A stretch of 64,000 nt of DNA from Cetorhinus maximus (taxonomy: Eukaryota), in contig NC_135879.1 of NCBI RefSeq assembly GCF_964194155.1, positions 130,572,001 to 130,636,000 of the forward strand, written 5' to 3'. Under the pieces are notes generated by a model. That model searched no databases. It was given only the letters and a program-made list of their open reading frames with translations, and had not been told where the DNA came from. Position numbers and translations under genes: made by a program. Positions 50,866 to 53,375 of the stretch are shown one piece after another (position 1 is the first letter of the stretch; each line of letters starts with the position of its first letter).

Positions 50866-50871
50866 TTTATT
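50866..50871 (-). promoter_or_regulatory. RPL9: RPL9 distal polyadenylation signal AATAAA
   Basis: tttatt on the plus strand, 27 nt past the exon 7b stop. Confidence 0.8.
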
Positions 50872-50898
50872 CATTGGTTTCTACCAAAGAGCCGGTGG

Positions 50899-51008
50899 TT
50901 AATCAGTGAACTGTGGAACAACAGTGGTCTTTTCGCTCACGTAGATGCCATCCAGGAATTTACGAATATCCTTCTTTTTCACTGTTGTTGCTTGTTGAAT
51001 GAGAGCAG
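50899..51008 (-). CDS. RPL9: RPL9 last coding exon, distal variant 7b
   Basis: Acceptor tctttag|CT; (A)[35 protein letters not shown]; gives 193 aa. Confidence 0.88.
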
Positions 51009-51843
51009 CTAAAGAGAAGGCAAACTGCAAGTTAGGTGTCTAAGCTCAACACAGTAAAACAGCATGATGCTATACCTTCAATATTGTTACAACACCCCTC
51101 TATCTCCTTGAAAAAGTGTATTTTTAATCATACTTCAAAAGGAAAAAGCAGTTAATACGCTGCGTTTCGAATAAGTAGCACAAAAGTAACTACAACTAAA
51201 CAATTGTAAATGTGGTAATATTAAGCTGGTAATTTTCCAAGGTTAGATTTGTGGAGTAAACTAACATTCAATGTCCACATTTAACCATTTACATTGCCTC
51301 TTCTCAGCTCCCCCTAAATTGTTTTACTATACAGAATGAAGGTTCAGTGCTTTAAAAAACTTTTAACTGAAGTTCATAAATCACGTCAATTATTTCACTA
51401 ATAAATTCTCACATTGAGAATTCAAAAGCTTTTTGTAAAGGGTCTGTTCTCCACCTTTTTCAGGAGGATTGCATCACCTGGAAAGCAGAACCTTTCATGT
51501 GACAGATTAAGCAGGACAAAACAGTGTAGTTTTGTGAAAATTCAGGAAGCAAGTTTTAGGACTCCATGTTAGAACCTGTACTGCCTGATCACTTCACAAT
51601 TAACAGTTTAAAATACTTTTGAGATGACAAGAATTAAGAAACTACCTGTGCTACTATTCATCCTCTTACATCACCTTGCTTTTTGCTGAACTTTAAAGGT
51701 TTGTCATTACACAAGCAGCTTTGGAATTTAAAAAACTATTTGCCACATGCTCTAGTGAGGATGCTTTCTCTTCACATAACCCTGCACATGCCTGCTCCAG
51801 TGGAGAAGACACAAGGAACTTTCTAACCTTTAATCCATTATGT

Positions 51844-51950
51844 CTATGTTGTGGTCTCAACAACTGCACCCTTCTCAGAGACGTAAATACCATCCAAGAA
51901 CTTTCGGATATCCTTGTTTTTGACTGTTGTTGCCTGTTGGATCAGGGCAG
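51844..51950 (-). CDS. RPL9: RPL9 last coding exon, proximal variant 7a
   Basis: Acceptor tcttctag|CT; (A)[34 protein letters not shown]; gives 192 aa. Confidence 0.9.
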
Positions 51951-53375
51951 CTAGAAGATAAATAACCCATGCAGGAAAATTAACCAAAAAGAGGCATCAT
52001 GCAAACAGGAGCTGAAAGGGAAACCAAAGACGACACAAATCTCATTGCAGCAGCACGTAACCCTTAAGTTGCCAATTAGAAACATCTGGTGCTCAATCAA
52101 CAACTCAAGAGTTAAGCCAAAAAGTAATTTTAAAAATCAAATCATAAAAGCAAAATTAAAATTTTAGGATTTTCACAATTTTGATGAACAGGATACCCAT
52201 GGAAAATAACAAAGAGAAGGAGCAAGCAGTATTGTATTGGTTTAAATTTTGAATCACCATATCAAGAAATCAACTTTCAACATCATCTATAAGGCTTGGT
52301 GAAGGAAGGAGAGATAGCCAGACAACAAAACTGAAGCCAGTGAGTAATCTATAATCACTGCCATATCTATCAACACAACAGCATCATTGACAGGCTGAAG
52401 TACACAAAGTAGGAGCTGTTTTCTAATGCAAATGGTAAAGAAACCAAACCATGTTTTAAAAAAGTTACAGAATGGTAAAGAGAAACTACATCAGGTGCAA
52501 GACCGTGTTGAAATGGGCAGGTGAAATGATGTGGGAAAAAATTGGAAGAGAAATGGGATATCAAGAAACAGCAGATGTTTCTCTGGGGAATGCAGATAGC
52601 TTATACATTAATATTCTTGAGGACATGTCAAATTTGCATTAAATGCTCTTAAGGGGTGGGGAAAAAGTTATCCAGAATTTCCCCAGAGAATCATCAAATC
52701 TGAATGATAAACCTGAAAACTGGCATACTAATCAAGAAATTGCAAAATTTGTGAAAGAAAATTGATTCAAAGTTATTTGAAAACATGAGGAAGTCCCTGA
52801 GGCAGCCAAAGGCTACAATCTTTAGGCCAGACCAGAAGACAAGAGCAGCCATTCAGATCACCAAACTTCACCTCAAATCATGATTAGAGGAGGAGACTAA
52901 TTTTACAGGCAGTCAAAACCCAGGACATTTCATCGATGAAACGATTTGTTCTATTAGGAGTCTTCACAAATTTCACCTTCATCTGCATAAAGGGGAAACA
53001 TCACACTTATACCCATAGGTTCCATGTCTACAAGTTACCTGAAAGGTAGGAATGGAAGTTACCAATGCATTAAATAACCATTTTAATCTTTCACTAGCCT
53101 CTGGAGTTGAGGGCTGGGGACTGGAATATGTCAAACACAAATTTACCACTTGAGGGGGCAAACTGAAATGTTTAAACACATTGAGGAAAGTTAAATAAGA
53201 GAAAGATCTATTGGAGAAATAGGTAGAAAAACAGCAGCCGGCATAATTCAAGAGGGAGCTTTGTTCAATTTAAAATACAACAGAAAAGCAGGAAAGTAGA
53301 ATATCCATCAGTAAAGAGATCTTCCAAAGTTATGATGTTTTTCTTTTGCGATGCGAATGGGCCAGTTTAAAAAAA

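Follow-up and report, generated by a model that had tools for sequence, protein, structure and literature searches.

Two homologous C-terminal exons point to a likely ancient splice switch in the ribosomal protein gene RPL9 (uL6) of jawed fishes

Introduction

Why would the gene for a core ribosomal protein carry two intact copies of its last coding exon, and do both copies contribute to protein? The RPL9 (uL6) gene of Cetorhinus maximus raises this question. A sequence-only reading of the locus had proposed that the two copies, exons 7a and 7b, are alternative terminal exons from which one gene yields two uL6 isoforms. Here, we analyzed a 64,000-nt window of contig NC_135879.1 (positions below refer to this window), together with the rest of the genome and RPL9 proteins of other animals. 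We conclude that the RPL9 splice switch, which affects a core ribosomal protein of jawed fishes, is real and ancient and has apparently gone unremarked; its architecture is well supported, and its regulation and function are hypotheses.

Results

Structure of the RPL9 gene

RPL9 lies on the minus strand of the window, where its exons match white-shark RPL9 at up to 100%, and sequence, fold and synteny identify it as the RPL9/uL6 orthologue. Exons 2-6 contribute 472 coding nt and end in phase 1. The features of the gene are as follows.

59701..59725, minus strand: exon 1, non-coding; starts with a pyrimidine tract, donor GAG/gtgagg; 5′ end approximate, the retrocopy 5′ end being weakly alike
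58320..58366, minus strand: exon 2, ATG at 58365 (sequence; retrocopy match)
58112..58227, minus strand: exon 3 (sequence; retrocopy match)
55312..55407, minus strand: exon 4 (sequence; retrocopy match)
54464..54596, minus strand: exon 5 (sequence; retrocopy match)
54295..54375, minus strand: exon 6, with the phase-1 donor CTG/gttagt common to both isoforms (sequence)
51968..52003, minus strand: two TGCATG motifs, starting 53 and 23 nt 5′ of the 7a acceptor (motif scan)
51828..51950, minus strand: exon 7a, a 123-nt likely cassette with 34 codons (Asn169, Gly185) (sequence and retrocopy junctions)
51846-51844, minus strand: exon 7a stop TAG, followed by 16 nt of 3′UTR and the donor AAG/gttaga
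51834-51829, minus strand: ATTAAA abutting or overlapping the 7a donor, 10 nt after the 7a stop; T/G-rich sequence downstream
51746..51791, minus strand: two GCATG motifs, starting 37 and 78 nt into the 7a-7b intron (motif scan)
50853..51008, minus strand: exon 7b, the shared last exon, with 35 codons (Lys169, Thr185) (sequence and retrocopy match up to 50853)
50901-50899, minus strand: exon 7b stop TAA; AATAAA at 50871-50866, poly(A) site near 50853

Exon 7a translates as [34 protein letters not shown] and exon 7b as [35 protein letters not shown]. Each exon has a pyrimidine tract, an AG acceptor in phase 1 that fits the exon 6 donor, and its own stop; from the 472 upstream coding nt, the predicted products are 192 aa for the 7a form and 193 aa for the 7b form. 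The sequence-only reading had been right on all of these points, namely two intact copies of the last coding exon at these places on the minus strand, their translations, the acceptor phases and pyrimidine tracts, and the product lengths.

Several further observations concern the gene and its surroundings. A putative second acceptor-like site (pyrimidine tract plus CAG, 52011-52013, minus strand) lies 61 nt upstream of 7a. If used, it would introduce a premature stop about 150 nt ahead of the last junction and might thereby allow feedback by nonsense-mediated decay (NMD). The exon 5-6 intron (54376-54463) measures only 88 nt, most other RPL9 introns being far longer. A beta-klotho-like gene stands tail to tail with RPL9 on the plus strand (7579-36899), with large exons near 7.6-8.4, 23.0-23.6, 27.8-28.1, 28.2-29.4 and 36.4-36.9 kb; we take this to be the syntenic KLB-RPL9 neighbor pair. 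By eye, the stretches 21296-22651 and 40895-45360 hold reverse-transcriptase-like LINE fragments and, between the two genes, several copies of a retroelement-like unit with reverse-transcriptase and nuclease-like frames. An Rfam scan of the window gave 0 matches, and hence no snoRNA accompanying the exon duplication. Some database protein models join RPL9 exons to WDR19 or RFC1 sequence, likely through mis-joining of neighbor genes.

Divergence of exons 7a and 7b

Across the first 26 whole codons (27 if the split codon is counted), 7a and 7b show 14 synonymous-only differences, including a TCT/AGC serine switch, and 1 replacement, exactly as first counted. The corresponding pS is 0.82 and pN 0.049 (26 codons; Fisher p 4e-10), and the encoded tails are identical at 27/34 positions. 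Between the two neighborhoods, BLASTN detected the exon match of 81 nt (83%) and otherwise only chance matches of 14 nt, in agreement with the earlier remark that the flanking introns are dissimilar. The comparison supports an old duplication with both copies under purifying selection.

The 7b tail is identical to that of whale shark at 34/35 positions, of bamboo shark at 33/35 and of cod at 32/35. Because the match to whale shark is 34/35 compared with 22/35 for a neutral retrocopy of 7b, conservation argues that 7b is still translated. Between 7b of the gene and the retrocopy, no excess of third-position differences was seen (5, 8 and 5 differences by codon position).

A retrocopy joins exon 7a to exon 7b

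Genome searches recovered one intron-containing RPL9 gene and one retrocopy, both counts being lower bounds. The possibility that the two tails belong to paralogues was rejected, as these searches found a single intron-containing gene. The intronless retrocopy (contig C21, about 73,045,236-73,045,972, minus strand) is a processed pseudogene with deletions and a stop. It follows the order e2-e3-e4-e5-e6-7a-7b at 73-88% identity by exon, and its junctions are exact both at exon 6/7a and at 7a/7b, the latter using the AAG/gttaga donor 16 nt past the 7a stop. A run of 7 A follows the position matching 50853, about 13 nt beyond AATAAA.

The retrocopy is a fossil mRNA, and a 6-7a-7b transcript therefore existed in this lineage. 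This revises the sequence-only reading in two respects. Exon 7a had been taken to end at its stop (51844) and instead runs to 51828, where a GT donor follows; and the two copies had been called alternative terminal exons, whereas the retrocopy joins them at AAG/GT...AG/CT, a join shared by bony-fish gene models. Given this splicing in the retrocopy and in the fish models, 7a is therefore likely an internal, stop-carrying cassette and 7b the last exon. Nor are 7a and 7b a strictly mutually exclusive pair, whose members would never share a transcript: the retrocopy carries 7a followed by 7b.

Of 460 proteins compared, 13 are visibly mis-predicted gene models that chain both copies. Among the six in which residue 169 of the first copy is readable, five show the order Asn then Lys. 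In a Coregonus model, all of 7a is translated in a shifted frame (18/41 identical to the shifted frame of the shark), past its stop and on into 7b; the end of this model, read by hand, is consistent with the salmonid tail GTVVQKED followed by a stop and then 2 nt up to the junction. The linkers of Lates, Aldrovandia and Oryzias models back-translate to a 7a tail, a stop and 11-23 nt (counted by hand). These bony-fish models, which are predictions and not transcripts, agree on a donor just past the 7a stop.

A proposed splice switch and alternatives to it

We propose that 7a is probably a stop-carrying cassette whose inclusion or skipping yields two uL6 forms, with both mRNAs ending at the 7b poly(A) site. 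Inclusion of 7a would give a 192-aa uL6 (Asn169, Gly185) and leave 7b as 3′UTR; skipping would give a 193-aa uL6 with Lys169, Thr185 and a longer tail, with 7b translated. On expression of the two forms as RNA, the observations are chimaera GenBank entries of both types, which may stem from cDNA clones, and the retrocopy of the inclusion form. Skipping from exon 6 to 7b very probably takes place in this species, as judged from conservation and from its relatives.

A different arrangement, in which polyadenylation selects 7a or 7b as a genuine alternative last exon and 7a ends via the ATTAAA 10 nt past its stop, appears improbable. It would account for the hexamer at 51834-51829 with its T/G-rich downstream sequence, and duplicated C-terminal exons are usually explained by this mechanism in the available text of PMC8373072. 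However, the single fossil mRNA of this genome shows 7a spliced to 7b, fish gene models make the same join, and the hexamer overlaps the 7a donor. Minor polyadenylation at this ATTAAA may occur alongside the splicing that we favor.

The rule for NMD is a stop more than 50-55 nt before the last junction. The 7a-included mRNA should escape decay, because its stop lies only 16 nt before that junction. The same distance bears on a further alternative, an AS-NMD feedback loop as in RPL3 or RPL12, or else a 7b that is only a 3′UTR exon with a relic frame. We consider this alternative highly improbable: in either main product, no stop lies >50 nt ahead of the last junction, and the 34/35 versus 22/35 contrast described above does not fit a relic, even though such loops are common in ribosomal protein genes according to the consulted part of PMC8047918 and use of the cryptic acceptor 61 nt upstream of 7a would introduce a premature stop.

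Two uL6 forms across jawed fishes

Both RPL9 forms occur in RefSeq as isoforms X1/X2 in relatives, these entries being models. Same-species pairs from Narcine, Callorhinchus, Salarias, Gadus, Neoarius, Astyanax and Paramormyrops (chimaera, a ray and five teleosts) are identical over 158/158 upstream residues in 7/7 cases and differ only in tail type. Together with the pS/pN contrast, these pairs support the earlier claim of an old duplication under purifying selection that provides two uL6 isoforms from one gene. In Callorhinchus, at least 6 GenBank accessions represent each form, and we infer that these are the full-length cDNA clones of PMC3466250, whose accessible text gives nucleotide accessions only.

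To follow the tail types, we counted residue 169 in named proteins sorted by hand, leaving out unnamed records, two-copy models and truncated models; the sample comprised the cluster members listed, up to 15 per cluster, without coelacanth, lungfish, gar, salamander or caecilian. Lampreys carried Asn169 together with Thr185 in 3/3 proteins. Asn and Lys counts were 5 and 5 in chimaera, 6 and 2 in sharks, 1 and 4 in rays and skates, and 1 and 5 in bichir and sturgeons. Teleosts (n = 109) had 84 Asn, 24 Lys or Arg and 1 other, and tetrapods (n = 104) had 101 Asn, 0 Lys, 1 other and 2 unreadable, many of the mammalian entries being RPL9-like retrocopies. The Asn type has 34 codons and the Lys type mostly 35. 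Lys169 is no absolute marker: it also occurs in four records whose tail is of the mammal-like QQADE or QQDDE kind, the position is Lys or Arg in many invertebrate proteins, and residue 185 is Gly in the 7b of chimaera, ray and carp.

In a tail tree built from 35 columns, and weak for that length, 13/14 7b rows group at 88/85 (unstarred), with the sturgeon 7b placed elsewhere. The tail-type label requires 2 changes on this tree against 9.5 in shuffles, with 0/500 as low. The lamprey tail looks like a single, pre-duplication, intermediate type, judging by its residues. We therefore regard as highly probable a single duplication after lampreys had branched off and before sharks and bony fishes diverged, followed by loss of 7b coding in tetrapods; the four mammal-like records with Lys169 speak against it. 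An early jawed-vertebrate duplication would date to over 400 million years ago. With the pair also found in chimaera, rays and teleosts, the event appears older than the sequence-only reading had supposed.

Independent duplication of the exon in cartilaginous and bony fishes would be compatible with the absence of starred support for one 7b clade and with the variation of residue 185 among 7b copies. It is nevertheless very improbable, as the exon order, the Asn/Lys split, the 34/35-codon split and the donor after the short tail are alike in both groups, and as the label changes on the tree are so few relative to the shuffles.

Within batoids, skate and ray 7b tails read SDKG where others read SEKT, and the skate entries seen are all of the 7b type; in the Narcine 7a tail, Thr replaces Ala within a stretch that is otherwise conserved. 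From these tails, 7a may be a minor form in batoids or on its way to loss there. That rays as a whole have lost 7a, a possibility prompted by the all-Lys skate proteins, was rejected, as Narcine X2 is of the Asn type.

Human RPL9 has 8 exons in the available text of PMC8385736, with a non-coding exon 1 and Leu20 in exon 3 in that of PMC6954397, which agrees with the numbering used for the present gene. Provided that intron positions are conserved, human exon 8 would be a 3′UTR exon in place of 7b. The proposed switch would also account for a 3′UTR intron in human RPL9, as the fossil of a switch since lost.

Position of the variable residues in uL6

A model of the chimaera 7b form (pLDDT 85, 63 sequences) matched solved uL6 chains at TM 0.95; a single-sequence fold was uninformative (pLDDT 36). 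In the model, exon 7 encodes the end of helix 151-164, a loop (165-177) and a strand (178-185). Residue 169 is located in the loop and residue 185 at the strand end, followed by a low-confidence tail at 186-193 (last block pLDDT 46). In the part of PMC6954397 available, a uL6 loop touches helix 95 at the factor-binding center, and we infer that this is the 165-177 loop. Zebrafish ribosomes 7OYA/7OYB were deposited with the 7a (Asn) form, and no 7b-type fish chain occurred among the 52 PDB sequences matched.

Motifs around exon 7a and possible regulation

Of the 8 GCATG motifs in the 9.3-kb gene, 4 flank 7a, comprising 2 TGCATG upstream and 2 GCATG downstream. The 200 nt around 7a hold 4 such motifs, compared with 1 in total around five other exons checked. 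This clustering has a Poisson p of 2e-4 corrected for six exons, for a motif picked after viewing the sequence, and another cluster of 4 in 300 nt is present in the window. We take GCATG/TGCATG to be the RBFOX-type motif. RBFOX bound upstream usually represses an exon, and bound downstream usually enhances it. Because the motifs here lie on both sides, the direction of an RBFOX effect on 7a cannot be called.

The cluster suggests that skipping of 7a may be regulated. Regulation by tissue or stage, through probable RBFOX binding at these motifs, is conceivable, with chances that we put slightly below even. The sole annotated form also varies by lineage, being Lys in skates, bamboo sharks and sturgeons and Asn in white shark, catsharks and most teleosts. 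This difference suggests that the 7a/7b ratio is labile among lineages.

A hint of tissue from the order of Callorhinchus accessions was not used. Those listed comprise the Lys-type AFM85942, 86062, 86249, 86420 and 89948 and the Asn-type AFM87446, 87982, 88206, 88609 and 90930, which form four runs among 5+5, with a chance of 42/252 (hand count); at most four accessions per sequence are listed, and the link from these accessions to the tissue libraries of PMC3466250 is itself presumptive.

Are the two tails functionally different?

It is quite likely that both proteins enter ribosomes, but doubtful that the two resulting ribosome types differ measurably in function. The main rival to a functional difference is equivalence of the tails. 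In that case, splicing would proceed as proposed here and the tails would be interchangeable, both conserved because both are highly translated and any uL6 must fit the ribosome, with lineage preference free to drift. We give this explanation a serious though not quite even chance.

The lineage dependence of the single annotated form agrees with interchangeable tails, as do the tetrapods, which manage with one form, and the concentration of most differences in the low-confidence residues 186-193. Plant RPL9 paralogues, moreover, act as a dosage system according to the consulted text of PMC8647923. Against this, the Asn/Lys169 and 34/35-codon contrasts persist side by side from chimaera to teleosts, and one splice-site change could lose a redundant cassette, yet both copies are kept in at least 7 species pairs.

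The most far-reaching form of the switch combines several of these elements. An RBFOX-controlled switch more than 400 million years old in jawed fishes would build two ribosome types that differ in the residue (Asn or Lys) of a uL6 loop close to the sarcin-ricin loop and in the tail, tuning elongation or termination in a tissue-dependent manner; tetrapods would have fixed the 7a form, leaving human exon 8 as a decayed 7b. As a whole, we hold this scenario to be unlikely.

Discussion

The sequence-only reading knew of no description of such isoforms for RPL9. Our search of literature listings and abstracts, with subscription journals, bioRxiv supplements and VastDB-type splicing databases outside its scope, likewise found none, nor any functional data on the variants; both forms already stand in RefSeq as X1/X2. 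The novelty thus lies in recognizing the isoforms, whose sequences were already deposited. The event was likewise not found in the available portions of PMC7671327, PMC2718932, PMC7093569, PMC8647923, PMC8047918 and PMC4494069, nor in the supplements of PMC7093569 and PMC5703972. Neither the supplements of a tilapia splicing paper, in which genes may be listed by id alone, nor those of a zebrafish Esrp paper contain the term 'rpl9'.

Alternative splicing of this kind would be unusual for the ribosome. In the accessible text of PMC4114680, tissue-specific alternative splicing is reported for RPS24 alone across 376 human ribosomal protein introns, and splicing rarely alters ribosomal protein structure according to a review (PMC8047918, in the part available). 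Outside mammals, the exchange of an entire exon in uL6, retained from chimaera to teleosts, is a counter-example to this rarity of ribosomal-protein isoforms.

Among tandem exon duplications, 236 human events give rise to substitutions, 77 of them C-terminal, in the available text of PMC8373072 and PMC9741552. A term search for RPL/RPS found none in the supplement of PMC8373072 and only fly RpS11 in that of PMC9741552. Human-centered catalogues would miss the RPL9 event because it seems to have been lost from tetrapods. RPL9 nonetheless belongs to this class of C-terminal substitutions, with homologous same-phase exons in one gene and isoforms otherwise identical (7/7 pairs). As in the other members, homologous tandem exons, one or the other of which is in the protein, are ancient and conserved in fish. 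The mechanism differs: in the class as set out in the available text of PMC8373072 and PMC9741552, alternative poly(A) or frameshifting skips operate, whereas in RPL9 an in-phase, stop-carrying upstream copy is likely skipped.

The integrin genes offer a second comparison. In ITGA6/ITGA3, the upstream of two homologous exons contains a stop and is either included or skipped ahead of the downstream copy, under ESRP/RBFOX control. Their A and B cytoplasmic tails are listed as vertebrate 3′ homologous exons in the accessible part of PMC4494069. These genes differ from RPL9 in that they encode signaling receptor tails, which are far more diverged than the 27/34-identical RPL9 copies and are kept in mammals.

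Within the ribosome, RPS24 (eS24) resembles RPL9 in that cassette splicing near the stop alters the C-terminus of a ribosomal protein, but there the cassettes are 19-22-nt microexons that change a few end residues, as described in the available text of PMC4114680, compared with a whole duplicated exon of 34-35 residues in RPL9. The paralogues RPL3L and RPL10L (PMC4114680, same portion) are similar to RPL9 in providing two variants of one ribosomal position. They are, however, separate tissue-specific genes, whereas the RPL9 variants belong to one gene with one promoter, where either form can be forced, making the RPL9 switch an unusually clean test of ribosome specialization.
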